Below, piece by piece: positions 13,116-50,095 of a stretch of 64,000 nucleotides of DNA. Both the position numbers and the translations under genes were made by a program. Numbering within the stretch: the first letter of the stretch is position 1; each line of letters starts with the position of its first letter. The stretch is from a virus. The stretch lies in the IMG/VR virus record IMGVR_UViG_3300024981_000003. One strand, given 5' to 3'. The notes under the pieces are model-generated. The model saw nothing but the letters and a program-made list of their open reading frames with translations. It ran no database searches and was not told where the DNA came from.

Positions 13116-13117
13116 CG
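13084..13117 (+). repeat. Junction element J3, copy 1
   Basis: AGGAAGAGGCAAAGGAGAAAGCCGATGTCTGACG. Matches 14105-14138 at 31 of 34 positions. Confidence 0.7.
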
Positions 13118-13386: not shown

Positions 13387-13793
13387 AGACGCGGGATCGC
13401 GTTCGACGCTACGCAAAAGCTAACCCCGACGCTACGATCAGGGACATCCAGCAAGCGTTGGAAATCTCGTCGCCATCAGTTGTGCACTACCACCTGCATT
13501 CACGGACCGTCCGCGACCGCATCGATGAGCTTAAAGCTCTGACCGAAAAACAATCGAGCGTGCTCCGCATACTTCGCGCCTACGTCAGGAATCATGGCCA
13601 CGCACCGACACTTGCAGAGCTTTGCGATCTGACGATGACCAAATCTGTCGGATCGATGCACAAGATGCTGAGCACGCTCGTCGACAAAGGCTTTCTCGAA
13701 AAGCGCTCCGGTGAATGGAACTCAGTCCGCTTGAAAGACGTGTGCCCGTGCTGCGGCCAGAACCTGCGTAAGGAGCAAGTGGGGACGCCGTGA
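13383..13793 (+). CDS. LexA-N-terminal-like winged-helix DNA-binding protein (no peptidase domain)
   Basis: LTEKQSSVLRILRAYVRNHGHAPTLAELCD...MHKMLSTLVDKGFLEKRSG..VRL matches the LexA DNA-binding-domain pattern. C-terminal CPCC. Confidence 0.55.
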   Translation: MKTRDRVRRYAKANPDATIRDIQQALEISSPSVVHYHLHSRTVRDRIDELKALTEKQSSVLRILRAYVRNHGHAPTLAELCDLTMTKSVGSMHKMLSTLVDKGFLEKRSGEWNSVRLKDVCPCCGQNLRKEQVGTP

Positions 13794-14086
13794 GGGACGA
13801 ACTTGACCATATTCTATCGCTGTATCAGGCGGTGACGGTCGCAGAGAAGCGCTTGTTCCGTGGGGGGGCAGACGCATGGGAAGAGACTTGCGACGTTCAC
13901 AACGAACGCATCGATGCGCTTTTTGCCGAACTCAATCGGCTGCTCGCGATACGTTCCGGCCAAGAACCGAAGTTGCCGATCGCTGAGCATGTGAAGAACA
14001 CCGAGAAGCGTTGGAAAAAAGAAGTCAAAGCCGAGATTAAACGCGAGTTGGCAGACGTTATTGGGATCTATCTCCATGATTTGTAG
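13790..14086 (+). CDS. Hypothetical protein (98 aa, GTG start)
   Basis: GTGA overlap with the upstream stop. Charged helical sequence. Confidence 0.45.
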   Translation: MRDELDHILSLYQAVTVAEKRLFRGGADAWEETCDVHNERIDALFAELNRLLAIRSGQEPKLPIAEHVKNTEKRWKKEVKAEIKRELADVIGIYLHDL

Positions 14087-14104
14087 TTGCCGACGTCATG
14101 GTCG

Positions 14105-14138
14105 AGGAAGAAGCAAAGGAGAAAGCTGATGTCTGAGG
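14105..14138 (+). repeat. Junction element J3, copy 2 (partly intergenic remnant)
   Basis: AGGAAGAAGCAAAGGAGAAAGCTGATGTCTGAGG. Confidence 0.7.
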
Positions 14139-14389
14139 ATTCAAAAACACTGTGGTGCATTGAGGTCGTTGGGCCTGATGATTGGCATGCAGCCAAGTCG
14201 CTTACGCACGCCAGAGAAATGGCGGGCAAGATAAACGAGCAGATTTGCCGGCGTGGCCATGATGATGAAAACGAGCCCAATGTGTGGGCCGTCCCTCGGA
14301 TTTGGCCATGGAGCGCCGAGCAGCATGCTCAATCGCTCAAAGAATTGGACTGCGGTCAAGCAAAGCATACGGAGAAAGCGGATGCATGA
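14129..14389 (+). CDS. Hypothetical protein (86 aa)
   Basis: Same SD and start context (J3) as gene 13108-13386, with an unrelated body. Ends in J4. Confidence 0.5.
   Translation: MSEDSKTLWCIEVVGPDDWHAAKSLTHAREMAGKINEQICRRGHDDENEPNVWAVPRIWPWSAEQHAQSLKELDCGQAKHTEKADA
14358..14381 (+). repeat. Junction element J4, copy 2
   Basis: Identical to 13358-13381. Confidence 0.7.
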
Positions 14390-14756
14390 ATCGCGTGGGG
14401 CTGGTTACGACAAACTCTGGGGTTGGTTCGGCCTCAGCTACGCATCGTTCTGCACCTTGCCCCGCATTCTCATGCACGAAATGCCCGACGCATGGCAGTC
14501 GAAGATGGCCGACCTGCTCGCTGAGTTCGACGCAACGTTCCAAACGTCGGAACTGCCACGCTGCAAGGTGATGGCGATCGATGAAAGCGGCAAATTCAGT
14601 CGTTGGCCGGACTGGCTGTTGCACTATCGCCGGCCGGAACTTTCACGCGTTCTTCGCCTTCGCTGCAAGCCCTGCGACGCCTGCGGAAAACTCAGCCATG
14701 AGTGCCCGTGCATCGACGCTCTGATCGCAAAAGCAGCAGCAGGGAACAACGTATGA
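14382..14756 (+). CDS. Hypothetical protein (124 aa)
   Basis: ATG at 14382 in the frame of track ORF 14253-14756. C-terminal Cys cluster CKPCDACGKLSHECPC. Confidence 0.5.
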   Translation: MHESRGAGYDKLWGWFGLSYASFCTLPRILMHEMPDAWQSKMADLLAEFDATFQTSELPRCKVMAIDESGKFSRWPDWLLHYRRPELSRVLRLRCKPCDACGKLSHECPCIDALIAKAAAGNNV

Positions 14757-15127
14757 CCCTCGAGGCCTTCATCCCCAGCCGCAACGCAACCGTTGCCTGC
14801 GGAACCTGCCGGCTCTGCTGCCGGAAAAGCATCATCCCGCTCTTGCCCGAGCACGGTGACGACGTCGCCAGCTACCACACCCAGATCATCAACGGCCATG
14901 TCGCGCTCGCGATGCAGCCGAACGGCGATTGCATCTATCTCGGGCCCGACGGCTGCACAATTCATGGCCATCACCCCGCCGTCTGCCGCACCTACGACTG
15001 CGCCGAACACTACTTGAGCCTGACAGGCGAACAACGGCGTGAGGCGATCGCATTGGGATGGATCTCGAAGGCAATCCTCGATGCCGGCCGGGAACGCGCC
15101 ACTGTGCCAAATACGGGTGACGAATGA
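14753..15127 (+). CDS. YkgJ-type (UPF0153) cysteine-cluster protein
   Basis: CGTCRLCC (CxxCxxCC) plus downstream Cys and His residues. ATGA-coupled start. Confidence 0.6.
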   Translation: MTLEAFIPSRNATVACGTCRLCCRKSIIPLLPEHGDDVASYHTQIINGHVALAMQPNGDCIYLGPDGCTIHGHHPAVCRTYDCAEHYLSLTGEQRREAIALGWISKAILDAGRERATVPNTGDE

Positions 15128-15501
15128 ACGAGTTTGGCCACATCGCCACAATCGGTAACGGGATTTGCATCGACGCGTGGGGCGCCGGTCCCTTTGTCAT
15201 TATCGCCGACGATACCCCATACCGGTTCGAGGATTCCGATCGCTTCGGTCCATCCCTCGTCACTAAGCTAGGCGAACTCTGCGCAAATCCTTGGCCAAGC
15301 GCGCGATCACCGTTTTGGCGAGCGCATCGCATCTGGGTGCGCCAAGGTCGTCGGCTCGCGGATGATAAAATAACGTGCATCTGGGATGAACCGAAGCCTA
15401 CGACGATCCAACACATGGGCGGCCGGCATTGGATGGTCGTCGACGATGGCGACGAAGACGGGGCAACAATAAAACTGGCGCGGCCAAGACAAAAAAAATA
15501 G
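15124..15501 (+). CDS. Hypothetical protein (125 aa), last gene of the plus-strand operon
   Basis: ATGA-coupled start. Followed by the convergent terminator region. Confidence 0.55.
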   Translation: MNEFGHIATIGNGICIDAWGAGPFVIIADDTPYRFEDSDRFGPSLVTKLGELCANPWPSARSPFWRAHRIWVRQGRRLADDKITCIWDEPKPTTIQHMGGRHWMVVDDGDEDGATIKLARPRQKK

Positions 15502-15552
15502 CGCCCTCCCTGCCGGCGCTACAGGCGGAGCGCTTTAATGGCAGGGAGGGCG
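15491..15552 (-). terminator. Rho-independent terminator ending the minus-strand late operon (convergence point of both operons)
   Basis: 13-bp stem CGCCCTCCCTGCC (15502-15514) pairs with GGCAGGGAGGGCG (15540-15552). Followed on the minus strand by UAUUUUUUUU. An inner GCGCT/AGCGC hairpin plus TTTAAT may serve the plus strand. Confidence 0.8.
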
Positions 15553-18602: not shown

Positions 18603-19796
18603 TCAGCCCTCCTTCACGAGCGACACCGAGCCGTCGACGTAGTAGTTGCCCGATCCGATATCGTTGACCTCCGTGTCGCCAAACGCGGAAGCCTGACCCG
18701 ATACGACGTAGGCTTGCAGTTCGACGACGGATGGCACACTCAGCGAAAACCACACCGACCCGACGGATGGTGCCGAGGACGCGTCCGATGCGTACGCGTC
18801 GACCGTCGTGCCCAATCCAAGCGGCGCGCCCGCCGAGACATTGTAGAGCCGCGCCCGCGTGTTCTTGGTTTTTGCGATCGCTCCAAGAAATGAGCCCCGG
18901 TACGTGCCTTTCGGCAAAATAATTTGATTTGAGCCGTTCAGGCTCGCGCCCGTGACCTGATTGATCACGATGTCGGATAGCGGCCGGCGGAACCAAGCAT
19001 TGAATGTCGTCACTGGCCGCTTGACGAGGTTGGGACGCCGCTCTTCAACCTTGAACGCCGCGCCGATCTTCGGAAGCGAAAGGTTGCCGCTCGACAGCGC
19101 AGCAACGATCGTCGCCAAGAGCTGCGCTTCCGTTACGTTGCGATGCGCATTTGATTGCACGCTAAAAAACGGAAAAAGATCACTGCCCGCTGGCGTCGCA
19201 GCGGAGAGCAAGTTGTAGGCGAGATTGGCGCGATAAACGTCGTCGATGTCGACGCCTTCGCCATCCAGCGGCACAGCCGACGGCGTTTGCGCCGCATAGG
19301 GAATAGCCCAAGGCGCGAGACGAAACGCGCCGCTGCCTCCGTCCAGCGCTTCATCGTAGACGGCAAAAACCAACCGCTCTGCCGTGATGTCTCCCGCGCC
19401 TATCAAACTGCCATCGGGCCGCAGGATCTTCTTGCTGCCAAGCCCGAACGCGTTGACGATCGAAGCGTCCGTCGACGAATGCGCCGGATAGAAGAAAACG
19501 CAGAGCCCCGTGAAGTAGGACTTCGGAGCCTGAAAAGCGTTGGTGAGCTTCAGAATATAGACGTTCGCGTTGCCGGCATCCTGACAGTACACGGCCGCCG
19601 ACGCATAGCGCGCCATTGCCTGCGCCAGCATACGCACATCGGAATCTGTTGGTGCGTTGTACGCATCCGGCGTGATGCCTGCAGTTATCACTGCATTGAC
19701 CATCTCCGCAAAGCGCCAATCGTCCTCAACGGCTTTCAGCGTACCTTCCGCGGTTCCGACACCGGCACCGTCGACTTTCGTGATGTACCTGCGCAT
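18603..19796 (-). CDS. Putative distal tail / receptor-binding protein, paralog 3 of 3
   Basis: Colinear similarity over its whole length to 19803-21002 and 21005-22207 (MLAQAMARY, YFTGL, EERRPN, YYVDG..S..KE). Confidence 0.6.
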   Translation of the reverse strand: MRRYITKVDGAGVGTAEGTLKAVEDDWRFAEMVNAVITAGITPDAYNAPTDSDVRMLAQAMARYASAAVYCQDAGNANVYILKLTNAFQAPKSYFTGLCVFFYPAHSSTDASIVNAFGLGSKKILRPDGSLIGAGDITAERLVFAVYDEALDGGSGAFRLAPWAIPYAAQTPSAVPLDGEGVDIDDVYRANLAYNLLSAATPAGSDLFPFFSVQSNAHRNVTEAQLLATIVAALSSGNLSLPKIGAAFKVEERRPNLVKRPVTTFNAWFRRPLSDIVINQVTGASLNGSNQIILPKGTYRGSFLGAIAKTKNTRARLYNVSAGAPLGLGTTVDAYASDASSAPSVGSVWFSLSVPSVVELQAYVVSGQASAFGDTEVNDIGSGNYYVDGSVSLVKEG

Positions 19797-19802
19797 CGCG
19801 AA

Positions 19803-21002
19803 TTAAGCCTCTTTGATGATGCTGATCCAGCCGTCGACATGATACGCGCCGGGGTCATTGACGCTGATGTCGGAAAGACGCCAGTCTCCGAACGATGTCG
19901 CGCCGCCCTCAAACAACCAGCTCTGAACCTCGATGGTGCTCGAGGATCCGGCCGGAATCTGAAACCACGTATTCCCAAGGGACGGTGTCGATGGCGAGTT
20001 CGTGTCGGACACATAGCTGTCTGACGCCGACCCGTTACCGAGCACCACCTGACGCGTCATGTCGACGAGCCGCGACCGATGATTGCCGCTTTGCGAGCAA
20101 ACGGCGGCCCATTCCGCGCGATAAGTCCCGGACGGCAGGCTGATCTGGTTGCCGACGAGTGCCGCGCCTGGTACCTGATTGACGACGACGTTCGAAAGTG
20201 GCCGCCTCAGCCACGTCCGGGTTGCGGCGGCGCGCCTGGTGCCGTTGGGCCGGCGCTCCTCGATTTTCAGGATTGGCGCAACCGTGATCAGCGAAACGCT
20301 CGTCAGGCCCGCTTGAATGATTGCGATCAATTCGGCCAGCGTCAGTTCGTAATGATGGCCCTTTGTCTGCGAATAGAACGAGAAGATATCCGTAAGCGCC
20401 GGAATTGCCGTGACCAATCCGGGAACGTTCAACGCGACGTGATAGGTTCCGTCGACGACTATGCCTTCACCTGAAACCGGGACCGCGGTGGGCGAAAGGA
20501 TTGAAGGCGGAACGGCCCACGGCGTGAGGCGGAATCCGCCCACCCCGCCGTCCAACTCTTCGTCATAAAATGCATCAACCAACCGGTTGGCGAAGATGTC
20601 GCCGGTCTTGATCGCGCTTCCGTCAGGTCGATAAAGAGATTTCGCGCCGAGCCCGTGTGCGTCGATGACAGACGGACCGTTTGAGGCATGCACGGGATAG
20701 AAGAGGACGCGAAGTCCCGTGAAATACGCCTTCGGCGACTGAATCTGCCCCGCGTTGCGCAAGATGTAGGAGTTTGCCGACTGTCCCGTGTCGATGCAGT
20801 ACACCGCCGCCGACACATACCGCGCCATCGCCTGCGCCAGCATTTTCAAATCGGTGTCGTCCGCATCGGGATCGTCGAGCGCGATTCCGGCCGTTGAGAC
20901 GGCTGCGGTCAATTCGCCAAAACGGACGTTGTCCTCTTCGGCATATAGAAATCCCGACGGCGCAGGTCGGCTGTTGTCGATCTTCGGCACGTAATCGCGC
21001 AT
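19803..21002 (-). CDS. Putative distal tail / receptor-binding protein, paralog 2 of 3
   Basis: See paralog 3. Lies tandem to it, 6 nt apart. Confidence 0.6.
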   Translation of the reverse strand: MRDYVPKIDNSRPAPSGFLYAEEDNVRFGELTAAVSTAGIALDDPDADDTDLKMLAQAMARYVSAAVYCIDTGQSANSYILRNAGQIQSPKAYFTGLRVLFYPVHASNGPSVIDAHGLGAKSLYRPDGSAIKTGDIFANRLVDAFYDEELDGGVGGFRLTPWAVPPSILSPTAVPVSGEGIVVDGTYHVALNVPGLVTAIPALTDIFSFYSQTKGHHYELTLAELIAIIQAGLTSVSLITVAPILKIEERRPNGTRRAAATRTWLRRPLSNVVVNQVPGAALVGNQISLPSGTYRAEWAAVCSQSGNHRSRLVDMTRQVVLGNGSASDSYVSDTNSPSTPSLGNTWFQIPAGSSSTIEVQSWLFEGGATSFGDWRLSDISVNDPGAYHVDGWISIIKEA

Positions 21003-21004
21003 CG

Positions 21005-22207
21005 TCAGCTTTCCTTCACAATCGATAGCCAGCCGTCGACGTAGTAGTTGCCCGATCCGATATCGTTGACCTCGGCATCGCCGAGGTAAGGATCATCGAC
21101 ACCTTGATCATTGGCCCAATATTGCAACTGAATGACGTGGGGCGGCCCGGCCGGAATCTGAAACCACGTCGTGCCGAGCGAAGGTGTTGACGGTGAATCC
21201 TTCTTCCCCGAGAAGCTATCCGACGCCGAGCCCGAGCCGATCATCTTCTGCGCCGTGACGTCGAAGAGCCGCGAGCGATGATTGCCGCACTTGGCAATGA
21301 CGCTGACCCAATCAGACCGGTATGTTCCGGGCGGGAGAGAGACCTGATTTCCGGAGAACGCGGAATTGGCGATTTGGTTGATGATGACATCCGAGAGCGG
21401 CCGCGCGGCCCACGCGTTATGGACGGCCTTGCGTTTCGTTAGGTTAGGCCGGCGTTCTTCGATCTGCATCGTCGGCGCGACCTGTGAGTACGAGATCGAC
21501 GGCACCGTCGCTTGCACGAGCGCAATCAGCGCTGAGAGCGAGATGATGCGATGGTGCAGGCCCGCATTCGAATAAAATGGGAATACGTCCGCCGAGACGG
21601 GCAGGCCGTGCGCCAAGCTCGGAAAGTTGAGAGAGATCTGATAGAGGTTGTCGACGGAGATGCCTTCGCCGGACGATGGAACGATGCTCGGCGCCAGGAC
21701 GGCCGCAGGTATTGCCCACGGGACAAGCCGAAACGCACCCGCGCCTCCATCGAGTGTCTCGTCGAAGAATGCATCGACGAGACGATTGGCGGCAATGTCG
21801 CCGTTACGAACCGCGCTACCATCCGGGCGAAACAATTTCTTCGAACCCAGCGAGAACGCGTTGATCGTCGAGGCGCCCGTCCCGGACGTGACGGGGTAGA
21901 AAACGACGCGCAAGCCAGTGAAGTACATTTTCGGCGGTTGAACAGCGCCGAGCGCTTTCAGGACGTAAGCGTTCGTGCCTCCGGAATCGAGACAGAATAC
22001 GGCCGACGAGGAATAGCGTGCGAAGGCCTGCGCCAGCATCTGGCGATCTTCGACATAGCCCTCCGGTGGATTGATCGGATCGGGCGTAATTCCCGCCGTG
22101 ACAACGGCATTTTTGAGTTCGGCAAACCGCGTGTTGTCTTCAAGTGCAGACAGAATGCCGGAAGGCGCCGGCGCTGTGCCGTCGACCTTGGTGACGAAAG
22201 TGCGCAT
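21005..22207 (-). CDS. Putative distal tail / receptor-binding protein, paralog 1 of 3
   Basis: See paralog 3. Lies tandem to paralog 2, 2 nt apart. Confidence 0.6.
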   Translation of the reverse strand: MRTFVTKVDGTAPAPSGILSALEDNTRFAELKNAVVTAGITPDPINPPEGYVEDRQMLAQAFARYSSSAVFCLDSGGTNAYVLKALGAVQPPKMYFTGLRVVFYPVTSGTGASTINAFSLGSKKLFRPDGSAVRNGDIAANRLVDAFFDETLDGGAGAFRLVPWAIPAAVLAPSIVPSSGEGISVDNLYQISLNFPSLAHGLPVSADVFPFYSNAGLHHRIISLSALIALVQATVPSISYSQVAPTMQIEERRPNLTKRKAVHNAWAARPLSDVIINQIANSAFSGNQVSLPPGTYRSDWVSVIAKCGNHRSRLFDVTAQKMIGSGSASDSFSGKKDSPSTPSLGTTWFQIPAGPPHVIQLQYWANDQGVDDPYLGDAEVNDIGSGNYYVDGWLSIVKES

Positions 22208-29140: not shown

Positions 29141-30300
29141 TCAGATGTTGCCGTCGCCGCCCGGGAACGATCCGACGCTTGATCCGCCCATGCCGAATTT
29201 CGACGTCCGCCCCATAGCGGCCGACGCGCCTTCTTCGTCGGTCGTGTAGGCGTCGGGATAGGTGCAGGAGATCTCCGTCGTCTCGCCGCCGCCCCACGTT
29301 TTGTGAAATTTGACGGACGAGATCAGGAGTTCCGCCTCGATCTCCCAATGAGCGTCGAGCACAGGGACAAGAAACCCGTGCCACCAAAGCCAGCCAGGAG
29401 ATCCATAAAATCCTTGAACAGTCGCGGTGTACTGGAAGCCGCGCGCTTTGGCTTCGCTCGACCGCCACTTCGCCGCTTTCGATGGCGACGTCCCGGAAAG
29501 CCCTTTGGCGCCGCGCGCGTGCATCTTCCGCTGGGAACGGACAGAGGAATCAACAGCCACCCCCCAGTTCTTTTGCAACGGATTGGCTTGCGCAGTTTTC
29601 TCGCCCTTCTGCTTCGATTGCCACCAATCCTTGTCGTTCGTCGACTTTTGGCCGTTGACGGCCGTCGTGTTGTGGCGGTTGAGATCGGAGTTGCGATACT
29701 TCGACTTCAACACGTTGTTCGCTGGATTGTCTTCGAACGTCGACATCAACATCGCCGGCGCGCGAAGCTTCCGGTTGCGATCGATGACAAGCGAGCCCTT
29801 GCCGTCGGTGTTGAAAAGCACCTGCCGCTTTTGTGCCCAGTCGTCGAGAAACTTGAACCCGCGTTCGTCGATCGATGCCGAGATTTGTTCGCCGTGCTCG
29901 TAGGGCGGCGGTCCGATGTTGTCGATGACCGGGATATTCAGGCCCATCGCGCCGATCGTTTGCTGCGCCATCTGCTGCAGCGTGATCGGCGGTTTCAGTT
30001 TCAGTTTCGGCCCGACCGTGGAATCGATCAGATCCTGCGTCTGATCGCGGATCGTCGCGTTGATGTAATGGTTGTTGTCGTCGAGTTCGCCATCGACCTC
30101 GTGCACATAGCCGGTGATGACCGGGCGGCCGTCGATGATGACCTGCGCGAAGTCGCCGACCCGCATCGGAAGCGGGATGCCGGGAAGCTCCGACATTTTG
30201 ACGTTGGCCTGCCCCGCGCACTTGTCATGCGCTTGGTCGACCGTCACCTCGACCCAGCCGGTGAACGGCGAGCCGTTGGCCGTCACAACGACGATGGCCA
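29141..30300 (-). CDS. Mu gp44/P-like baseplate hub (late control D family)
   Basis: ATG at 30300 (MAIVVVTANG...) chosen within the track ORF. Synteny after the DNA-circulation gene. Confidence 0.7.
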
Positions 30301-30339
30301 TGATGGCACCTTTTTGGGGAAGTTCTTGCCGGTCGGCGG

Positions 30340-31545
30340 TCAGTCCACGCCGATCAGGATGTTGACGGCGCCGTCGAACAAGGCCGGGTTTATGCCGGCA
30401 TTGAGATCGACGAGCGTGTCGGTGCGATCGTCTGCGTCGTAAAGCATGTAGGCCAGCACGGAGGCCGGAAATTGTGGAACGTCGAGCCAACCGATATTGG
30501 GAAGCTGCAGCTCTTCCTGCCGAAGCACGTCCATCGCGGCCGCCACGATCTTCGCGATGGCCGCCGCCGTGTCGGACGGTAGTGTTTCGGTCGGGATCGC
30601 TTCGTAGAGCGCCAGCAGTTGACGCTCCGCGCTCGCAACGCCATCGACCGTCGTGTACGTCGTGCCGGCCATCGCTTCAGCCATCGACGACAAGCACGCG
30701 AGTTGTATGAACGTGGCGTAGGTATAGAGCGACCGAGACCGCACTTGATAATCAAGCGTCGCCGTAAGACCCGTCGTCGGAATGGCGGCGGCCACGGCGT
30801 GCATCTGCGTTGCCTGGCTCGCAGCCTGCGCCATGCCATTGACGATATCCTGGCCTGTATAGGTGGCCGAGATATCTTCGAACGGGCCGCGGAAAAGTGC
30901 CGTCAGTTCGTTGGAAAGCATCGGAGCGCTGGTCGCATAGCGCTCGGGCGCGGAGATCAGATGTCCGGCCGCCGTCTGCACCGCTTCCACAGATCCGAAT
31001 GCAGTCACGAACGTCTCGGCCACGGCCGTCACTTGCTTGGCCATGAAGGTCTCGGTCACGGCCGACATTGCCGGCGTGCCGTAGGCGTTCTGAAACAGCG
31101 TGAAGAGCTCGCCGACGAACTGAGCCGAGAGCCCCGTGACCAATGCGGCAATGGCCGACGTCCTGCCGGGAAACACGGCAGGACCGGTGACGAGAAAGCA
31201 GACTTCGAGTTCGAGAACGCCGGTTTCGCGATCTTCGCGCTTGACCCTCCAAGGCCCTTTGACCGCGCAAAACTGCGTGCCATACCACGGATGATGCAGA
31301 GTGCCCGGACCCGGTCGATTGAGGGCCGAGCGCAGCGCGCTGAAATCGGACAGCACCGAATTCCCGTGCAGCACGCACGTCATTTTGAATTCGGGCGGGA
31401 TATAACCGTTATCCTCGGCGTACCGGAGCGAGGAATCCGGATAGCGGTGGTCGATCGTATTGCGGCCCTCTTCCGCGGTATCGTGCGGACAGAGAAAGCG
31501 CGCACCCCGGAATGATGCCGGGCGCAGATCGCGGAGCATCACCAT
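30340..31545 (-). CDS. Mu gp43/N-like DNA circulation protein
   Basis: N-terminal SFRGARF...EEGRNTIDHRYPDS motif of the DNA-circulation N-terminal domain. GAGG SD. Confidence 0.75.
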   Translation of the reverse strand: MVMLRDLRPASFRGARFLCPHDTAEEGRNTIDHRYPDSSLRYAEDNGYIPPEFKMTCVLHGNSVLSDFSALRSALNRPGPGTLHHPWYGTQFCAVKGPWRVKREDRETGVLELEVCFLVTGPAVFPGRTSAIAALVTGLSAQFVGELFTLFQNAYGTPAMSAVTETFMAKQVTAVAETFVTAFGSVEAVQTAAGHLISAPERYATSAPMLSNELTALFRGPFEDISATYTGQDIVNGMAQAASQATQMHAVAAAIPTTGLTATLDYQVRSRSLYTYATFIQLACLSSMAEAMAGTTYTTVDGVASAERQLLALYEAIPTETLPSDTAAAIAKIVAAAMDVLRQEELQLPNIGWLDVPQFPASVLAYMLYDADDRTDTLVDLNAGINPALFDGAVNILIGVD

Positions 31546-31555
31546 CGGAGAGCCT

Positions 31556-31594
31556 CAAAAAGCAAAACGCCCGGAAGCGGTATGCTGCCGGGCG
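31556..31594 (-). terminator. Intrinsic terminator 5 nt downstream (minus sense) of 95-bp repeat copy 1
   Basis: Minus strand reads CGCCCGG-N13-CCGGGCG followed by UUUUGCUUUUU. The SD and ATG 31545 follow. Confidence 0.7.
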
Positions 31595-31599
31595 CGAAG

Positions 31600-31694
31600 A
31601 GCGACGATAGAAATTACGATGCCAGTGACCCCGATTTGTCGCAAGGGGGCTGCAATGTTTTTTTATTGTTCGCCATGCGGCGGAGTGTCGCAGT
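31600..31694 (-). repeat. 95-bp perfect direct repeat, copy 1 (non-coding element)
   Basis: Matches 60574-60668 at 95 of 95 positions. Flanks are unrelated. Confidence 0.95.
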
Positions 31695-31759
31695 AAATTG
31701 TCTTTACGCGTGTGGTGCGAGCCCCAAGATCAACGCTACGACTGACGCGGGAGACGACG

Positions 31760-32020
31760 ATGGAAATTGGTGTCGGAACATTGCTCTTGGGGCTGGCGGG
31801 CATCGGCGGATTGGCCTATCTCGCCATTTTGGCCATATCATTTCAAGCTCCGCCGAAGCGGCCGCGCATGATGTCGATGCGCGACGCTCCGCACGTCAAG
31901 CCGCGCGAAGGCTATGTCGATGGCGTCGTCCGCCGATGGTCGATGATGATGGGGTGCTTGGTGCTTGCGGCCATTATCGCCATTCCGCTCCTCACCATCT
32001 TCGTACCCACCGGCCGCTGA
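31760..32020 (+). CDS. Small two-TM membrane protein encoded antisense to the tail operon (moron candidate)
   Basis: ATG at 31760 with a GGGAGA SD. TM segments IGVGTLLLGLAGIGGLAYLAILAI and MMMGCLVLAAIIAIPLLTIFV. The only plus-strand gene within 47 kb of minus-strand genes. Confidence 0.5.
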   Translation: MEIGVGTLLLGLAGIGGLAYLAILAISFQAPPKRPRMMSMRDAPHVKPREGYVDGVVRRWSMMMGCLVLAAIIAIPLLTIFVPTGR

Positions 32021-34354
32021 TCACTTCGAAACGCGTGGCGCCGCCGGTTCAGCCATGCTTTGACCACGAGGTGCCGATGCCGCAAGCGGCATCTCACCGT
32101 TGACGTTGGCTGTGAGGCCATTGAGGCCACTGAGCGTGCCCTTCAAGGTCACCGACGCGGGCACTTTCAATTCGATCGGATCGATCGTCGAGCGGACCTG
32201 CACGTCGGCCTGAATCCTTTGGGCGGCCGCATTTCTGCCCGCTGCTGCCGCATCGGCCGCAGACGCACCGCCGCCACGCGGGCCGAAGCCGTGGAACGTC
32301 GGCGACGGTTTCGGATGATACTTTGCTTTCAATGCTTCGGCTTCCGCGATCAGATCCTGGGCGTGCCGCATCCGCTCCTGCGTCGCCAGATACGAACGCC
32401 CTTCGATCCCGATGACATCGATGCCATGATGCCTCCGGCGCGCGTTGAAACGCATGTTATCGAGCTGCGCCGAATGGCGGTCGCCGAAGCCCGCCGCTTG
32501 CGTGATGGCCTCGGCGTTTGCGCGCGCGCCGGTCTTGTTTCCAGCCGCGATGTTTTTCATCAGCGCCCAGACTTCGGACAGAACTTTCTTCACCTGATCC
32601 CAATGCTGGTAGATCTCATAACCGAGAAAGATCAGCGCTCCGGTTCCGCTGATGAGGCTGAGGGCCCGCAAAGCTCCGACTGAAGCCCAAATGCCGGCCG
32701 CCGCTCCGCCAATACCTCTCAATGCCGCCGAAATGCCGGTAATGCGGGCCAAACCCGCGATCATGGGTCCAAGCGCACTCAATGCAAGCAAAGGCATCGC
32801 TGCAACCGACAACATATTTAGAGCAGCCGCCGTCCAGCCAGCGGCTTCGAGGAGCCATGGATGCGCGTCGGTACTCGTCGTGCCATGGCCGCGTGAACCG
32901 TGCACCACCGTTTTGCCGGTAATCGCATCCATGAGTTCACCAAACTTCGATGCCAGCTGCCCGACGTGCTCGCCAAACCCGGACTCACCGACAGAGACCT
33001 TCAACCGTTCCCATGCCGTCGCGAACCTTTTCAGACCAGCTGCTCCGCCTTTGGAACCTTCGAGGCCCATCATCTCCGCTAGACCATCGACGTTTTTCAA
33101 ATCTTCGATCATGGCACGCAGTTCGTTTTTGTTCGTGCCGTCGAACGCAGCCGCGATGGCTTGCGCGACTTTCTGTCCGCGGTCCCCAAACATCTTGTTG
33201 AATGCGGCGGCCCGTTGCGCTGGACTAAGTTTTGCCGCCGCCTTACCTACGACGTCGGCAAACTCTTCCGGCCCGAGCACCTTGCCATCCTTATCGGTCA
33301 GGTCGGATTTATGAAGGCCCAGAGCCTTCCAGAACGTGGCACCTTCCTTGGTCCAGTTGAGGGTCTTCGTGATCATGCGCGAGAGGCCCGATCCAGCGAA
33401 CTGGCCCATACCCCGCTTGGCGAGAAAGCCGACGGCGCCGACCGTCTGTTCCTCGGTCCATCCGGCCGCGTGGGCGACGGCCGAAATCTGACCCATTTGC
33501 GACGTGATCTGGCCCATGGTGATGCCCGTCTTCTGGTGGATGCGGGCGATCGTGTCCGAGATGTGCGGGAACTTCTCGGCAAATTCTTCCGGCTTCATGC
33601 CGAAGCCTTGCGCGATCATCAAATGTGTCTTGAACGTCTCGGCCGGATCCTCGCCGGTCGCCGTCGCGATACCGAGCATCTGTCTTGCAACGACCGACCC
33701 CAAAAGCTCGCCTGACTTGGTGCGAGCACCAATCGGAACCCCGCGCTCGGCTTCGGCCATCATCACTTTGGCAATCTCGGACGGTCCGAAAATCGTTCCA
33801 CGCGCAGTGTCCATTGCGCTCTTTCTCAGCGCCGCCAGTTGCACGTCATCGATCTGCCCCGCCATGGTGCCGCGGATCTTGCGGAACTCATCGTCAAAAT
33901 CTGCCCACGTCTTCGTGACGTCGTTGTGCAGCATTGAGAGCGCAAACAATCCGCCCATGAATCCGACGCCGGAGCCCTTCTCTTTCGGGCCCGGGATTGC
34001 GCCGGACTTGATCAGGTTTTGCCGCGCCACGTGGCGCTCGTACATCCCCTGCTCCATCTTCTCGATGCGGTTCATCGACTTGATCTGCAGTTCGGTGAAC
34101 CGCGCCGATTCCTGCGCGGCGCGGGAGTTGGCCTTCGTGAACGCACCAACGCCCTGCGCCGCCTTCTCGGCGCCGGCGGCGACGCGGTTCATCCCCGCCG
34201 CCGCTTTCGCCATCTGACCGTCGATCTCGGTCGCCGCCTTTCCCATGTTGCCGATCGACGTCTTGGCATCGGCTGCCGCTTTCGCAACACGCTCCGCAGC
34301 AGCGGAAAACGCGTCACGCAACGCGATAATGTACTCAACCGTAAATCCGGCCAT
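32021..34354 (-). CDS. Tail tape measure protein
   Basis: 777 aa. Lies directly downstream of the chaperone and frameshift genes. Helical N-terminus, Gly/Ala-rich hydrophobic central segments. Confidence 0.9.
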   Translation of the reverse strand: MAGFTVEYIIALRDAFSAAAERVAKAAADAKTSIGNMGKAATEIDGQMAKAAAGMNRVAAGAEKAAQGVGAFTKANSRAAQESARFTELQIKSMNRIEKMEQGMYERHVARQNLIKSGAIPGPKEKGSGVGFMGGLFALSMLHNDVTKTWADFDDEFRKIRGTMAGQIDDVQLAALRKSAMDTARGTIFGPSEIAKVMMAEAERGVPIGARTKSGELLGSVVARQMLGIATATGEDPAETFKTHLMIAQGFGMKPEEFAEKFPHISDTIARIHQKTGITMGQITSQMGQISAVAHAAGWTEEQTVGAVGFLAKRGMGQFAGSGLSRMITKTLNWTKEGATFWKALGLHKSDLTDKDGKVLGPEEFADVVGKAAAKLSPAQRAAAFNKMFGDRGQKVAQAIAAAFDGTNKNELRAMIEDLKNVDGLAEMMGLEGSKGGAAGLKRFATAWERLKVSVGESGFGEHVGQLASKFGELMDAITGKTVVHGSRGHGTTSTDAHPWLLEAAGWTAAALNMLSVAAMPLLALSALGPMIAGLARITGISAALRGIGGAAAGIWASVGALRALSLISGTGALIFLGYEIYQHWDQVKKVLSEVWALMKNIAAGNKTGARANAEAITQAAGFGDRHSAQLDNMRFNARRRHHGIDVIGIEGRSYLATQERMRHAQDLIAEAEALKAKYHPKPSPTFHGFGPRGGGASAADAAAAGRNAAAQRIQADVQVRSTIDPIELKVPASVTLKGTLSGLNGLTANVNGEMPLAASAPRGQSMAEPAAPRVSK

Positions 34355-35090: not shown

Positions 35091-35124
35091 GAAAATAAAA
35101 ACGGCGGCCCCCAGGACCGCCGTT
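35091..35124 (-). terminator. Intrinsic terminator after the tail tube gene
   Basis: Minus strand reads AACGGCGG-N9-CCGCCGUU followed by UUUAUUUUC. Confidence 0.75.
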
Positions 35125-45915: not shown

Positions 45916-46079
45916 CAGCCGACCTTGATGATGACCCGTGGCGGATTGCGTCGGAAGCGCACGCACATCGCAACAGCCTCGTCGACTGCGGCACGGTAGT
46001 CGTGCATCCCGGTTTTGACGAGGTATTCGGCGCAGCGCCGCTCAATGTCGATGTCGGCCACGAGCGTGTGCGTTTTCAT
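45915..46079 (-). CDS. Small hypothetical protein (54 aa)
   Basis: Hand-translated MKTHTLVADIDIERRCAEYLVKTG... TGATG overlaps at both ends fill the gap exactly. Confidence 0.4.
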   Translation of the reverse strand: MKTHTLVADIDIERRCAEYLVKTGMHDYRAAVDEAVAMCVRFRRNPPRVIIKVG

Positions 46080-49000
46080 CAGCGCAGATCCGCACGCGTG
46101 AAGCCGCTGAACGTCCGGCCCTTCGCCGCTTGCGCGGCCGCCTGGACAGTCGGATTGGCCCAGCCTCGGCGTGCTCCGCTCGTTCCCGACGCTGGCGCGT
46201 CCGACGAGTCCTTCGCCGGGGCACGGTATGCAGTATTCGCCGCGTTAAACGCGTCGTGCACGGCGACACCGGTATTCACGGCCATGCCGGGAAGCGACAT
46301 ATCCCACGCGCCCTTGGCGGCCGCCTTGATGATGCCGGTCGCGCCTTCGCCGTGGCGATAGGCGGCGATGCCTTCCGACACGGCGCCGAAGCCCATGAGA
46401 GCGACAGACGTCGCCGGGATCGCCTTGGCCGCCGTCATACCGGCGCGCATCAGGCCGCCCGTGACTGCAGCGGTGCCGACGGTGAAGCCTGCAAGCGTTA
46501 CGCCGCCTTTAACGCCTTCCTTAGCCGCTTCCTTGATCTGGCTGCCGGCATCGCGGCCTTCGGCCTTCGCCTTCGACGATGCCACGATCATTGCGGCGCC
46601 GATCGCGATCGGCGCAAGCACGCCCGCGACCTTACGGACACCGCGCTTGGCGGGTTTCGCAGCGATTTTATCGGCAGCCGGAGCGCGTTCAGGCTTCGGC
46701 GCGTTCATCTTGGCGCGCATGCGATCGGCGACACCGTTCGATGGTTTGGTGAGCGCCTCGGTGCGCAGTTCCGCATCGCCCTTCTGACTGTCGCCGGCAC
46801 GCATGCGGTTGAGATAACGACGCTCGCGATCCGCGCGGACTTGGTCTCCAATGGACGCCCATTTCTTAGCATCCTCATGCCGCTGCATTTCGGTCTCGCT
46901 GAGCATTCCGTGTTTTGCCTTCACGTCTTGCGTCAGTGTTTTGAGAGTTGCCTCGGCGGCATCGCCACGCGGCGTTCCCGGCGTCGTGGTCTGCGACTCC
47001 TTAATCGCATTTTGCAGCCGCGCCACATCGGCCATGCGAGCGTGCGCTTCGAGGCGATCGATATCGACTTGGTTCCGCTTGACGAGATCAAGTCCGATGG
47101 CCACGCGCTGCTTCGAGGCTCCGGGCGACGTACCCTTGAGCGCTTTGGCGATCTCTGCGTGCGCGCGCGCCGTCTGATTGCGGGCCTCAATCACCTTGAT
47201 CGGATCGGGAAGGTTCGATGCCTTCGCCGGCGCTTTCGCCCTTGATTTGCGGTTGGTGTTGATCGCCTCCAGGTTCGCGGCGTTCTGCGTTCCGCGCTTT
47301 CCCGACGTCACCTTATCGATTGCGGCGCTGACGTCCTTCATGATGCGGTCGCGACCTTCCTGAAACTTGCCCGGAAGGCCCGCCTCTTCGGCCGACGTCA
47401 ACGCACGAAACGCGCCGACGGTCTGTGCCTTTCGCACCATCGACCGGCCCGTCGTATAGGCCCGCTGCTCGATGGCTTTGATCATCGCCGCTTTCGAGGT
47501 CCGCGCGGCGGCCTTCGAACCGACGACCTGCTCGTGAACAGCCTGGATCTCTTGTTTCGAAAGACCCGCGAGGCGCTTCATGGGATCACTAGGCGCAACG
47601 CTTTCACTCGCGACCTGGCGCACGATGTTGGCGAACGGTTTGCGTGGCGCTGAGATGCGCTTCACTTCATCGTCGACGCGGCGAACGCGATCAACAATGT
47701 CCGTCTGCTGCCGGGATGAAGAGAATAGCCCGTGGTCGGCTGCATCGCCGGTCCGGCCCTTGGCCGCCTTCTTGCGCGATTCCGCTGCGATCTTATCTTT
47801 CGTCGTCGCCTTCGGCATCATGTCGCCCTGGCCATCGTCGATTGACATGCGGACTTTGCCGGCGGTGCTTTCAACTTTGCGATGCATGTAGCGCGACGCC
47901 CCATAAGCGTTGTCGCGACGATCGACTGAACGGATCGCCGACTTGAGCGTCTTCGCCGTGCCGACGACCTTCTTCGTCTGACGATCAACGATCTCGTAGG
48001 CAGCTCCCGATTTGGGCTGTTTCATGTCGTCGCCTTTCGCATTTGCCTTGCGGGCGTTTGCACTCGCGGCACGCGCTTTATCGTCCCAGACGTGATGCTC
48101 GCCAGCCGCCTTCGGCTCGATCGAGAACATCGACGTCTGGTTCTGATTGACCATCTGATGCATCTCGGGCGCATCGCCCGTGAGCGCCCGCATGCCGCCG
48201 GATTTCAGCGCATCGCCGACAGCCTTGACGAACGAGCGCGCTGCGACTTGCGGCTTCTTGCCTTCCGCCATCTGGAGGGCCGCCGTCTCGAGCATGCTGG
48301 AAACCGGCCCGCGGTTCTTTGCGAGCCGTTCTACCAGAGCGGCTGTGGTCCCCGCCTCCGAGGCGCGCGCCGCGTTCGTTTCGTGACTGAGGCGGTTACC
48401 CGCCTCCTCGATAGTGTGAGACTCACGATCGAGCAGCGCAAAAATTCGCTTGTCCGACTTGAGCGATCCGAGAGCCTTGTCGAGAACAGCGGCGCGTTCG
48501 GCGATGAGTGAACGCGTCTTCGTTTCCTCACCGAACAGCGAATTCTGTGATTCATGGATCGAACCGGCACTAAGTGCTTGATCGACATAAAGTCCGGCGT
48601 GCTGCGCCGAAGTGATATTGGCTTTGGCCATTTCGGCAAGCATATCGGCATGGCGTGTGGTTTCTCCAATGCGGGCGCCGACCTGTGCGGCGTACTCCGG
48701 CTTGATGACCCCGCCGACAACCATGTCGAAGGCCGGCTTCGAGAGCTTCGCAAGGTTAGCCGCTTCGCGGACTTTCGCGTCCGACATCGGCACGGAACCG
48801 TTGACGAGGTCCGGCCGCTCGCGCATCACCTTCGCCATATCGAGCGCTTGGCCCGACGATTCCTTGATGTTCTTCAAAGCCGCGTACGCGTAGACATCGC
48901 GCGGCGACCAGCCATCGCGCTCGCGCAGCACGTAGGCGTCCATGTTGATCTTCTGACCTTCGGACGCGAGCCGCTTGGCGAGACCGAGGCGCTGATGACC

Positions 49001-50095
49001 GTCCGCGATGACGAGGTCGCCGTTGGCGCGCTCGAAGACGACGGCCTTGCCCGCCGCTACGTTATCCCACGACTTCACGCCTTTGAGGCGATCGGTAACG
49101 CCGTGGTTGTCGCCGCCCGACTTGAATTGGAACGTCGACGGATCGGACGTGATCTGGCGCGGATCGAGTTTGCGGAATCGGGCGGGCTTGTTGTCCGCCA
49201 TGTCCTTGTTGAAGAGCTGCTGGAAGGCGTTCGAGGCGGCGTCCTTGACGCCTTGGAAGTCGATAAAACTACGATCAAACTTTCCGGCCTCGACGTTCTT
49301 CGCAAGGATGTGATTGTCTATCGGGTCATCGAACCCGATCGGCTCTTGCAGGCCGGGAATGTGCTCGGACGGCAATCGGCCACGTCTCATGGCAGCCGTG
49401 TGGCCGTATTGACGGCCGGTCAGTCGCGCTTCCTGCTCGCCGGCGAGAAGCTTATATTTCTCGATGCGCTTATCGCGACCTGAATCGCCGGGATAGAATT
49501 TCTCAAAATCCTTGGGCGAACCGCCAAGATCGAACTTTTCCCGTTCCGCAACCGAGTGCTGAACTTCGTGCAACACATGCTCCATGGCCTCATGGGCCAA
49601 ATCGCCGTGAGCGTCGAACGCTCTCGGCGACAATTTGATGGTCTCGCCATCAAATGACGAGCCCTCTGCATTGGCGGGAGCGCGCCCGACTTGCAGCGAC
49701 TTCAAGGTCGGCATCGCCTGATAGAGTTTCGGATGGTTGAGGACGTTAGCGAGATCCGTCGTGCCGGAACGTGGGACGGCGCTTTTGTTCAGCGTCGCGG
49801 TGTTATCCGTCAATTCAAACCGCGGTTGGTTATCTTTCGCAAAAGTGATGCCAGCGTATGGCGAGCCGCGCAGTTTCTTATTGCTCGCCCGATAAACGCC
49901 AACGCGCGAACGATCACCATTGTCCATAGCCTGCTGCGCAGCATCGAATGCTTGCGACGGGCGATCGTCGCCTGCTTTGGAAAGTGAATCGGCAGCCTTG
50001 AGCCCAAGAAACATCGCGCCGACGGGAGCGGCGGGCGCAAAAGAAGAGGCCGGGGATTTGTCATCCCCGGCCTTGCGACGGTCGTCTTTTGCCAT
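46079..50095 (-). CDS. Polyvalent virion protein (1338 aa): HExxH zincin-like motif, ParB-like nuclease domain, C-terminal glycine-zipper membrane segments
   Basis: LHEVQH at aa 175-180. ParB/Srx-type VVFERANGDLVIADGHQRLGLAKRL at aa about 350-375. Located between the portal and MuF genes. Confidence 0.7.
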   Translation of the reverse strand: MAKDDRRKAGDDKSPASSFAPAAPVGAMFLGLKAADSLSKAGDDRPSQAFDAAQQAMDNGDRSRVGVYRASNKKLRGSPYAGITFAKDNQPRFELTDNTATLNKSAVPRSGTTDLANVLNHPKLYQAMPTLKSLQVGRAPANAEGSSFDGETIKLSPRAFDAHGDLAHEAMEHVLHEVQHSVAEREKFDLGGSPKDFEKFYPGDSGRDKRIEKYKLLAGEQEARLTGRQYGHTAAMRRGRLPSEHIPGLQEPIGFDDPIDNHILAKNVEAGKFDRSFIDFQGVKDAASNAFQQLFNKDMADNKPARFRKLDPRQITSDPSTFQFKSGGDNHGVTDRLKGVKSWDNVAAGKAVVFERANGDLVIADGHQRLGLAKRLASEGQKINMDAYVLRERDGWSPRDVYAYAALKNIKESSGQALDMAKVMRERPDLVNGSVPMSDAKVREAANLAKLSKPAFDMVVGGVIKPEYAAQVGARIGETTRHADMLAEMAKANITSAQHAGLYVDQALSAGSIHESQNSLFGEETKTRSLIAERAAVLDKALGSLKSDKRIFALLDRESHTIEEAGNRLSHETNAARASEAGTTAALVERLAKNRGPVSSMLETAALQMAEGKKPQVAARSFVKAVGDALKSGGMRALTGDAPEMHQMVNQNQTSMFSIEPKAAGEHHVWDDKARAASANARKANAKGDDMKQPKSGAAYEIVDRQTKKVVGTAKTLKSAIRSVDRRDNAYGASRYMHRKVESTAGKVRMSIDDGQGDMMPKATTKDKIAAESRKKAAKGRTGDAADHGLFSSSRQQTDIVDRVRRVDDEVKRISAPRKPFANIVRQVASESVAPSDPMKRLAGLSKQEIQAVHEQVVGSKAAARTSKAAMIKAIEQRAYTTGRSMVRKAQTVGAFRALTSAEEAGLPGKFQEGRDRIMKDVSAAIDKVTSGKRGTQNAANLEAINTNRKSRAKAPAKASNLPDPIKVIEARNQTARAHAEIAKALKGTSPGASKQRVAIGLDLVKRNQVDIDRLEAHARMADVARLQNAIKESQTTTPGTPRGDAAEATLKTLTQDVKAKHGMLSETEMQRHEDAKKWASIGDQVRADRERRYLNRMRAGDSQKGDAELRTEALTKPSNGVADRMRAKMNAPKPERAPAADKIAAKPAKRGVRKVAGVLAPIAIGAAMIVASSKAKAEGRDAGSQIKEAAKEGVKGGVTLAGFTVGTAAVTGGLMRAGMTAAKAIPATSVALMGFGAVSEGIAAYRHGEGATGIIKAAAKGAWDMSLPGMAVNTGVAVHDAFNAANTAYRAPAKDSSDAPASGTSGARRGWANPTVQAAAQAAKGRTFSGFTRADLR

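Follow-up and report, generated by a model that had tools for sequence, protein, structure and literature searches.

An exact 95-bp repeat in a metagenomic prophage as a possible late-gene promoter module with its own terminator

Among the described ways of switching on late genes, three resemble the locus reported here. In the lambdoid phages, the PR'/qut/tR' region and its Q proteins (lambda Q, Q21 and Q82) lie where an early operon runs into a late promoter, which is followed by an intrinsic terminator and gives a short RNA; a possible protein-binding motif sits between the -35 and the -10, and the long late operon contains further terminators. At lambda PR', a sigma-dependent pause element is found 12 nt (start to start) from the -10. 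In Pseudomonas aeruginosa, the small DNA-binding protein AlpA loads onto the polymerase at its two target promoters, which share a motif between the -35 and the -10 and carry an intrinsic terminator immediately upstream of the first gene, the terminator tB beginning 54 nt after the start site (PMC7969949). A third case is the gene transfer agent (GTA) cluster of Caulobacter crescentus, controlled by GafY, GafZ and IHF, where a far-upstream activator site, a weak -35 and a second factor site between the -10 and the -35 are combined with downstream terminators that are bypassed by polymerase loaded at the promoter, GafZ being described as a protein whose helix-turn-helix (HTH) is similar to that of sigma factors (PMC11150451). 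Here we describe a locus of comparable layout in a 64,000-nt stretch of viral DNA (IMG/VR record IMGVR_UViG_3300024981_000003, hereafter the window), which carries an exact 95-nt direct repeat in two copies. Judging from its sequence, this repeat is most likely a late-gene promoter with a terminator of its own, and there are about even chances that it works through processive antitermination loaded at the promoter, as in the lambda Q, AlpA or GafZ systems.

The repeat, ACTGCGACACTCCGCCGCATGGCGAACAATAAAAAAACATTGCAGCCCCCTTGCGACAAATCGGGGTCACTGGCATCGTAATTTCTATCGTCGCT, stands twice on the minus strand without a single mismatch, at a start-to-start distance of 28,974 nt, where shuffled sequences lead to an expectation of 0 matches. 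Copy 1 lies among the tail genes: along the minus strand, the tape-measure gene is followed by a gene in antisense, copy 1, 4 nt, a hairpin, a T-tract, the motif GAGG and the ATG at 31545 of a gene for a Mu gp43-like protein, all of whose homologues contain PF07157. Copy 2 is located at the end of the early operon, a set of seven small minus-strand open reading frames (ORFs) from 62597 down to 60671 that reads directly into the repeat, and the packaging genes come after a winged-helix gene behind it. An earlier note on this DNA had placed a 95-bp element in the middle of the tail operon ahead of the baseplate genes, which the exact repeat and the gene order confirm; its claim that the repeats enclose the packaging, head and tail-shaft block is likewise borne out, with the genes for the small and large terminase, portal, protease, capsid, sheath, tube and tape-measure proteins lying between the copies. 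Copy 1 is not an assembly artefact, since two independent ENA assemblies (L097 and L098; related loci are given L numbers throughout) carry the same element, with 99.96% identity over window positions 30211-32774.

The conserved anatomy of the element could be followed through fifteen instances from about nine phage lineages, 13 of them tabulated and aligned by anchoring on motifs and two, L104 and L129, read directly; L104, L109, L115 and L169 represent one element type, counted once as L104. The best conserved block among the fifteen is a 17-bp site, box A, with the consensus nTGCG(A/T/G)CAnnn(C/T)G(C/T)C(A/G)CAy, which can be read either as a direct repeat of 7-bp half-sites spaced by 10 bp (TGCGnCA-N3-TGCCrCA) or as a dyad (TGCG-N9-CGCA), and which presumably binds a regulator. 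A box A pattern, TGCGWCANNYYGCCRCA, matched 12 of 93 loci, and every match was an element site. After an unconserved segment of 14, 19-21, 30-31 or 40-41 nt comes a -35-like hexamer, whose CTTG (of CTTGCS) occurs in 14 of the 15 instances, ATTG standing in L095. The distance from there to the first -10-like hexamer, of the pattern (T/C)AnnnN, is exactly 17 nt in all fifteen, and this spacer is itself partly conserved, which is unusual for such a segment; at about -23 to -17 it holds a heptamer nGCGnCn that looks like half of box A, in a GC-rich background where likenesses may easily arise by chance. The second -10-like hexamer is TAnnnT in 13 of 15 instances, with varying inner bases (TATCGT, TATCTT, TACTCT, TACAGT, TATAGT), the exceptions being CATCGT in L088 and ATTGGA in L129; two roles are conceivable for it, that of a sigma-dependent pause element (at about +1 to +6) and that of the true -10. 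The alphaproteobacterial sigma-70 consensus, known from work in Sinorhizobium, is CTTGAC-N17-CTATAT, which CTTGnn-N17-TAnnnT resembles. The element is always oriented in the direction of the late genes downstream. Two other promoter classes were considered and rejected: sigma-54 (TGGCAT-N5-TTTC in the window), because the GG and GC positions vary in L002, L085 and L088, and an extracytoplasmic-function (ECF) sigma reading of the CGTC block, for which there is no conserved -35 partner at the proper distance.

Attached to the element is a hairpin. At both window copies, a GC hairpin and the T-rich tract behind it fit an intrinsic (Rho-independent) terminator, and we infer that both terminate transcription. 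The copy-1 hairpin, with a z score of -2.7 and none of 300 shuffles folding as well, was missed by a standard terminator scan solely owing to the loop limit of 8 nt; the copy-2 hairpin starts 13 nt after the element, ends in the tail TTTTTTGCTG and has a z score of -3.2, with at most 1 of 300 shuffles folding as well. Over the 13 folded instances, the hairpin starts 20-28 nt after the first hexamer and ~9 nt after the second, at -17.6 to -26 kcal/mol, and in 11 of them it beats at least 299 of 300 shuffles; the same layout was read in L104 and L129. Hairpin sequences differ among the copy-1 type, the copy-2 type, L004, L085, L087, L088, L005 and L095, and the pairing alone is kept. The copy-1 hairpin is 82% identical to that of L001 and 71% to that of L002, and the copy-2 hairpin 86% to that of L094, 75% to that of L090 and 53% to the hairpin of copy 1. 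Wherever the element occurs, whatever the site or lineage, the terminator comes with it, and the hairpin is therefore to be counted as part of the module, not as an appendage of the tape-measure gene.

What follows the terminator is of two kinds, an immediate Shine-Dalgarno (SD) sequence and ATG at the sites inside the late operon, or a leader of ~110 nt and more at the copy-2-type sites. In all six leaders of the latter type (window, L090, L094, L095, L104 and L129), C outnumbers G by 11-19 in the 60 nt behind the terminator, where the background value is 0.2 +/- 5.3, and this composition suggests that the leader may be a Rho-loading (rut-like) tract placed behind an intrinsic terminator. A promoter of its own for the winged-helix gene was looked for in the copy-2 leader, and neither leader alignment contained a conserved promoter-like motif. 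Our own scan of the late strand found only four canonical compact sites of hairpin plus T-run, namely the two at the repeats, one directly 3' of the tube gene and ahead of the chaperone and tape-measure genes, and one at the operon end (Table 1).

Table 1. Positions of the elements, terminators and neighbouring genes in the window
Feature	Position	Strand	Remarks
Copy 1 of the 95-nt element (proposed late-promoter module ahead of the baseplate genes)	31600-31694	-	exact repeat
Copy 1, box A, TGCGACACTCCGCCGCA	31676-31692	-	17-bp bipartite site
Copy 1, -35-like hexamer TTGCGA	31639-31644	-	preceded by C (CTTG)
Copy 1, 17-nt spacer	31622-31638	-	partly conserved motif aatc.g.G.C.c.gg; anchored alignment
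Copy 1, first -10-like hexamer CATCGT	31616-31621	-	weak; relatives: TAGTTT, TATCTA, TATATC, TATAGA
Copy 1, second -10-like hexamer TATCGT	31604-31609	-	12 nt start to start after the first (6 nt between)
Copy 1, predicted terminator hairpin, GCGCCCGG.AGC.....GCT.CCGGGCG	31568-31595	-	folding energy (dG) -20.8 to -22.7 kcal/mol
Copy 1, T-tract, TTTTGCTTTTT	31557-31567	-	
SD GAGG of the gp43-like gene	31553-31556	-	
Mu gp43-like DNA-circulation (DNA_circ_N) / baseplate-hub gene	30340-31545	-	ATG 31545; phrog_184 at 3e-46
Antisense 86-aa gene, small hydrophobic protein	31760-32020	+	between tape-measure gene and copy 1; GC at third codon positions (GC3) 0.72
Tape-measure protein gene	32021-34354	-	phrog_28 at 7e-33
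Third internal canonical terminator, hairpin CGGCGGTCCTGGGGGCCGCCG plus TTTTTATTTT	35092-35122	-	-16.7 kcal/mol; without element
Terminator at the end of the late operon	15489-15533	-	hairpin of -19.4 kcal/mol plus T8
Copy 2 of the element, between early operon and packaging/head genes	60574-60668	-	exact repeat
Copy 2, box A	60650-60666	-	
Copy 2, -35	60613-60618	-	
Copy 2, -10	60590-60595	-	
Copy 2, second hexamer	60578-60583	-	
Copy 2, predicted terminator hairpin, AACCCGGCCGG....CCG.GCCGGGTT	60534-60560	-	dG -21.2 to -24.4 kcal/mol
Copy 2, T-tract, TTTTTTGCTGTCT	60522-60535	-	
Untranslated leader behind the copy-2 terminator, ~104 nt	60418-60521	-	first 60 nt C-rich and G-poor (22 C, 11 G)
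Gene for 52-aa basic protein, N-terminal CxxC, first after copy 2	60259-60417	-	no family match
Gene for 124-aa stand-alone OmpR/PhoB-type winged-helix protein	59885-60259	-	start overlaps stop of the 52-aa gene
Last early-operon gene, 74 aa	60671-60895	-	stop codon 2 nt from copy 2

The family to which this phage belongs is rare and comes from metagenomes only. Among 38 homologues of the gp43-like protein, the named ones are from Hyphomicrobium and Filomicrobium metagenome-assembled genomes (MAGs), at 39-44% identity, and to judge by the names of these distant homologues, the host is apparently an alphaproteobacterium. No DNA similarity to deposited phages was found, nor any exact match to a 40-mer of the element in IMG/VR, nor any close relative in the GTDB genomes in either of two scans, by gp43 and by a flanking gene. 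The gap between the tape-measure and gp43 genes holds an orthologous element in L001, L002/3, L004, L085/6, L087, L088/9 and L097/8, and the whole cassette of antisense gene, gap of ~160-260 nt, element, hairpin with T-tract and gp43 start is kept down to 46% gp43 identity (L001, L002/3, L004, L085/6, L087 and L088/9). At 38% identity, in L005-L008, the tape-measure gene abuts gp43, the cassette and the antisense insert both missing; the element of L005 sits elsewhere, ahead of tail genes, and in L004 one more copy stands immediately ahead of the tape-measure gene. Equivalents of copy 2 occupy the same site in L090, L094 and L095, upstream of the pair formed by the 52-aa and winged-helix genes. 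A pattern scan of IMG/VR followed by nhmmer added two more element types, L104/L109/L115 and L129, at analogous sites between early and terminase genes, and a metagenome-wide pattern scan returned mostly chance matches and two true elements, both duplicates of known types. The unit is portable, as it recurs at differing intergenic sites: the additional one in L004, the tail genes of L005 and the positions in L104/L109 and L129. Moreover, in the 5-14 kb fetched, L104/L109 and L129 have no BLASTP-detectable protein in common with the whole 64-kb window or with each other, the queries being all stop-to-stop frames of 40 aa or more from L104, L109 and L129, which were compared with the entire window, those of L109 also with L129.

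DNA motifs at fixed spacings with filler between them, and a stem conserved only in its pairing, make the pattern of a promoter plus a structural terminator. The promoter activity, start site, termination, read-through and factor that appear in the following scheme are predictions drawn from that pattern. The module would comprise box A, a weak sigma-70-type promoter (CTTGCS, 17 nt, TAnnnN), the second hexamer at about +1 to +6 and a terminator starting at about +14 and ending at about +55, and it would serve two sites, the junction between the early operon and the packaging, head and tail-shaft genes, and the position before the baseplate genes, past the antisense insert. Set between promoter and genes, the terminator would halt polymerase arriving from upstream, and an unmodified polymerase starting at the module would also be halted, leaving a transcript of ~50 nt. 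Only a factor recruited at the promoter DNA would then make the polymerase terminator-resistant and turn the late genes on, box A giving activation. With either hexamer as the -10, the predicted start site lies upstream of the stem, by ~14 or ~2 nt, so that transcripts must traverse the terminator. The earlier note had argued that a terminator ahead of the baseplate genes requires either promoted read-through or re-initiation, and both hold in part: transcription probably re-initiates at the element, because this carries a conserved sigma-70-like promoter and an upstream box, but it would do so upstream of the hairpin and not downstream, and the new transcripts would have to pass the hairpin, which points to promoted read-through. 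A promoter-loaded antiterminator would also fit with the 12-nt offset of the second hexamer, the C-rich leaders of the copy-2 type and the further internal terminator after the tube gene.

When compared with lambda PR', the second hexamer has the same offset as the pause element, and the early operon leading into the putative promoter, the predicted terminator behind it, the possible protein-binding motif between -35 and -10 and the long late operon with further terminators are all alike. However, the terminator here starts at ~+14 and that of lambda at ~+150 or later, there are two or three modules per genome instead of one, an extra bipartite box lies far upstream, no Q-family domain was matched in the proteins scanned, and the host is apparently an alphaproteobacterium. 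The AlpA layout is even closer than that of lambda, with two putative promoters, a possible shared spacer motif and promoter-proximal terminators, although at ~14 nt here versus 54 nt there; no upstream box A has been described for AlpA, and the only fold in the window that is related is that of an HTH_17 protein (63280-63939) in the position of a lysogeny regulator. The Caulobacter GafZ system shares with the layout predicted here the alphaproteobacterial setting, a far-upstream activator site, a weak -35, a site between -10 and -35 and terminators downstream, but the GTA terminator comes after the first gene and is made up of 150-bp repeats, and GafZ is described with a sigma-factor-like HTH where the candidate here has an OmpR-type winged helix. 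Several late promoters with one conserved upstream protein-binding site and poor core elements also occur in P2 (Ogr) and Mu (C). To our knowledge, those late promoters have no promoter-proximal terminator, and their sites are nearer to the promoter (about -55 or -43). The putL and putR sites of HK022 are likewise two copies ahead of terminators, but put is a folded RNA, unlike the element here, which has no conserved RNA structure. The spacer motif of the element appears to lie where the binding elements of Q, AlpA and GafZ lie (PMC7969949, PMC11150451).

As for the trans-acting factor, relatives do not keep the genes immediately upstream of copy 2 but do keep the pair immediately downstream, which codes for the 52-aa CxxC protein and the winged-helix protein. 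The 52-aa gene is called at the same position in L095, with a tblastn/BLASTP link to the window protein, and reading L090 and L094 reveals a corresponding coding sequence; the winged-helix gene follows copy 2 in four lineages (window, L090, L094 and L095). The 124-aa protein matches PF00486 (Trans_reg_C) at 34.6 bits, over a cutoff of 26.2, and has no receiver domain. Its AlphaFold2 (AF2) model, with a mean confidence (pLDDT) of 78, gives as best Foldseek matches the DNA-binding domains of SaeR, ToxR, ArlR, RstA, PhoB and CadC, at a probability of 0.98-1.0, a TM score of 0.5-0.6 on the target and E values of 0.04-0.2. OmpR-type domains typically bind tandem repeats, like box A, and for that reason the pair is a candidate trans factor, with a putative role in binding box A; the factor could just as well be some other protein of the phage or one of the host. 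The location of the pair behind the first terminator suggests a positive-feedback switch that leak-through from the early operon would prime. We propose only tentatively, and with more doubt than conviction, that the whole is an undescribed portable cassette of phages without detectable protein homology in the flanking 10 kb or more, which would be served either by a new antiterminator, the winged-helix and 52-aa proteins being one candidate, or by a conserved host factor recognising box A. A trans factor common to all element-bearing lineages was also sought: the BLASTP of the L104, L109 and L129 frames against the window gave no meaningful match, and a profile of the winged-helix family was negative against the ORFs that come first downstream in L129 and L109. 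The window also encodes other DNA-binding candidates, namely a protein with a LexA DNA-binding domain (13383-13793) and the HTH_17 protein mentioned above. In L096 (353-1119), a distant winged-helix homologue (45% identity) is encoded behind a 116-aa gene, with no element seen upstream; judged only by eye, the 116-aa product may have an HTH of the DnaA C-terminal type, a pairing that recalls gafY-gafZ.

The same conserved anatomy would also suit an activator-dependent late promoter with a leaky attenuator or insulator, where, without any dedicated antiterminator, a box A activator raises initiation so far that the share of polymerase slipping past the terminator is sufficient, and a partial terminator keeps out polymerase coming from the early operon or the tape-measure side and holds basal leakage in lysogens low. 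We consider this possible, though on balance unlikely. Several observations weigh against promoter-loaded antitermination, and some of them favour this simpler arrangement. Scans with Pfam and PHROGs detected no domain of the Q or AlpA families in the window proteins covered, all the early-operon ORFs included, a search that did not test GafZ homology and that covers a window ending at 64000. The promoter pair with the first hexamer fails an E. coli consensus scan, and the -10 of the window, CATCGT, is poor; weak -10 elements with a far upstream box are typical of activator control. The second hexamer is often the better -10, and if it were the true -10 of an activator-dependent promoter, the argument from the pause element would fall. 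Spacings between box A and the -35 are in helical phase in part, as 19-21, 30-31 and 40-41 nt fit and 14 does not. T-tracts are canonical in 11 of the 13 folded instances, and those of L088 and L005 are weak. The fetched parts of L104/L109 and L129 yielded no winged-helix homologue, although box A is conserved there. Furthermore, a polymerase that left copy 2 fully terminator-resistant would make the module at copy 1 seem redundant, and a second promoter there makes more sense if that polymerase is not terminator-proof; partial terminators in tail operons do exist here, as seen after the tube gene. However, a hairpin of -20 kcal/mol or lower with a T-tract after every promoter copy, in at least eight lineages, would be a costly way of tuning, and a leaky attenuator leaves the spacer motif, the second hexamer and the C-rich copy-2 leader unexplained. 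Moreover, lambda PR' and AlpA, the studied systems of this layout, proved to be antitermination systems (PMC7969949).

Two more distant explanations have also been weighed against promoter-loaded antitermination. If the functional product were an RNA, either a multi-copy small RNA (sRNA) gene made of element and terminator or a put-like cis RNA transcribed from upstream that renders the polymerase terminator-resistant, the two copies ahead of terminators would recall putL and putR of HK022, and a sub-threshold match to the rhizobial sRNA RcsR1 (RF02552; 60530-60632, 25.7 bits, E 0.0026) would gain in meaning. On reading the alignment, that identity was dismissed as chance, since it consists of 7 nt at the 5' end and a generic terminator, with 55 nt unaligned, the gathering score being 60. 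The 95-nt element alone has no significant fold (z score -0.85), RNAalifold gives trivial pairs only, with the covariation term against the fold, and nothing in the element region reaches an Rfam gathering score, copy 1 having no match even below it. In addition, the conservation obeys the logic of DNA motifs, with fixed spacings of 17 and 12 nt and variable segments, and the hairpin, the part that would certainly be transcribed, is the least conserved in sequence, all of which makes an RNA product very unlikely. A role at the DNA level or on the other strand (a divergent promoter or operator for the antisense gene, a site of recombination, packaging or replication, or a programmed 29-kb excision) is scarcely plausible. 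Copy 1 does lie 66 nt from the start of the antisense gene, with box A facing it, and the copies do exchange sequence; an identity of 95 bp is enough for RecA-dependent recombination. Nevertheless, there is no adjacent antisense gene at copy 2, L090, L094, L095, L104 or L129, and in L088 the called antisense start codon overlaps box A, so that no promoter would fit in between. Relatives differ in where the element sits and in how many copies they have, but its direction with respect to the late genes is constant and a terminator is always attached; the prophage has a tyrosine integrase of its own (3322-4674); and excision would take out all the head and tail-shaft genes, with no deleted junction found in the near-identical contigs L097 and L098. 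A mobile repeat, either a miniature inverted-repeat transposable element (MITE) or a repetitive extragenic palindrome (REP), and an att site were rejected as well: alignment of the two copies with their flanks showed neither terminal inverted repeats nor a duplicated flank, only two copies exist in the 64 kb, both internal, and the integrase is at the position just given.

The identity of the two copies has a history of its own. Identity between them is 100%, against only 69-74% with the orthologous elements that the closest relatives carry, while the terminators track position (82% from copy 1 to copy 1, 86% from copy 2 to copy 2, and 53% from copy 1 to copy 2), and these facts together indicate a recent gene conversion of ~95 bp in the window phage, which spread the lineage-specific A-tract AACAATAAAAAAAC to both sites. 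Both sites were recovered in two probable relatives, L001+L094 and L002+L090, each paired because the two contigs come from one sample, and there the copies are 82-84% alike, no more than between phages. The earlier note had suggested that homologous recombination between the repeats would excise the block between them as a circle. Its geometry is correct, and gene conversion shows that the copies recombine, which is not evidence for excision; this part of the idea finds no support, as the only near-identical contigs found, L097 and L098, both carry an intact copy-1 junction, and no deleted form of the 29-kb block was seen. Paralogous sites of this kind, probably regulatory, occur in all close relatives, and the repeats are neither a device dedicated to excision nor a designed recombination site. 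A crossover between them would delete or circularise all the head and tail-shaft genes, which in our view is no function but a liability and one way in which the prophage might decay.

The antisense gene beside copy 1, which starts at the ATG at 31760 and not at 31763, probably encodes a moron-like membrane protein, as hydrophobic segments were read by eye in its 86-aa product. In the window, L085, L087 and L088, this slot between the tape-measure and gp43 genes holds small proteins with hydrophobic stretches that are non-homologous (18-24% identity), and it behaves like an exchangeable moron position, with superinfection exclusion as one guess at the role. As with morons, which are accessory genes with transcription of their own set into late operons, an antisense gene in a fixed slot is swapped for unrelated small proteins, and distant relatives are without the insert; unlike the signals of a moron, the 95-bp element is not the promoter or terminator of that gene, and occurs where no such gene is present. 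Copy 1 might have originated after the insertion of a moron-like antisense gene that broke up the late operon, a late-promoter module then being recruited, which would have restored the expression of the baseplate genes. Beyond gp43, L001, L002, L004, L085 and L088 have a gene for a 900-1744-aa LPD1-domain protein and the window phage a 449-aa hub gene, which marks the region as a variable part of the baseplate module; L097 and L098 both stop at window position 30211.

With regard to the rest of the genome, the window is an integrating prophage with a tyrosine integrase, and a Mu-like transposable phage is ruled out by this integrase together with the small and large terminase genes. The early control region at ~62600-62850 is AT-rich, divergent and operator-rich, with the inverted repeats GTATACGAAAAT / ATTTTCGTATAC, and is probably the lysis-lysogeny switch. 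On its minus-strand side lies the first early gene (62388-62597), without a family match, whose product looks by eye like a small ribbon-helix-helix protein, and the plus-strand genes on the other side include that of the HTH_17 protein. After the integrase, a plus-strand block (4678-15127) encodes an ATPase (4678-6306), an RtcB RNA ligase (6281-7849), a DUF4326 protein (10013-10720), a PAPS-reductase-like protein (10717-11469), the stand-alone LexA DNA-binding-domain protein and a CxxCxxCC protein (14702-15127). As an accessory or early set this is unusual, and RtcB hints at an RNA-repair counter-defence. In the same region, a 42-nt stretch repeated at 13077-13118 and 14098-14139 on the plus strand, 86% identical, spans the ribosome-binding site (RBS) and start of two small genes, which may be paralogues. 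On the minus strand, three tandem paralogues of ~400 aa at 18603-22207 (18603-19796, 19803-21002 and 21005-22207), with conserved ends and divergent middles, contain the repeat families D1, D3, D5 and D6 and may form a tail-fibre or receptor-binding cassette. In the head module, between the portal and MuF-like genes, a 1338-aa ORF on the minus strand (46079-50095) has no Pfam match, and its positional homologue in L090 has a faint LPD23 match only; its product may be a large virion-associated or ejected protein.

Some of the significance of this locus does not depend on how the module works, as it cleanly illustrates how gene conversion can make two regulatory sites alike over a distance of 29 kb. 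If the terminators turn out to be merely leaky attenuators, the rest would be ordinary operon punctuation. If, on the contrary, the repeat is a late promoter with a built-in terminator and promoter-loaded antitermination, the signature of box A, CTTGCS-N17-TAnnnN, TAnnnT and hairpin would be a way to find late operons in such phages, and a cassette of ~150 bp could serve as a tight, factor-gated expression switch. It would also mean that a little-sampled and apparently alphaproteobacterial group of myovirus-like prophages, seen in metagenomes only, runs its late genes in an uncommon manner, by two or three copies of a compact cassette, and that there is a new lineage of promoter-loaded antitermination, whose factor, by the family scans made here, would be unrelated to Q or AlpA.

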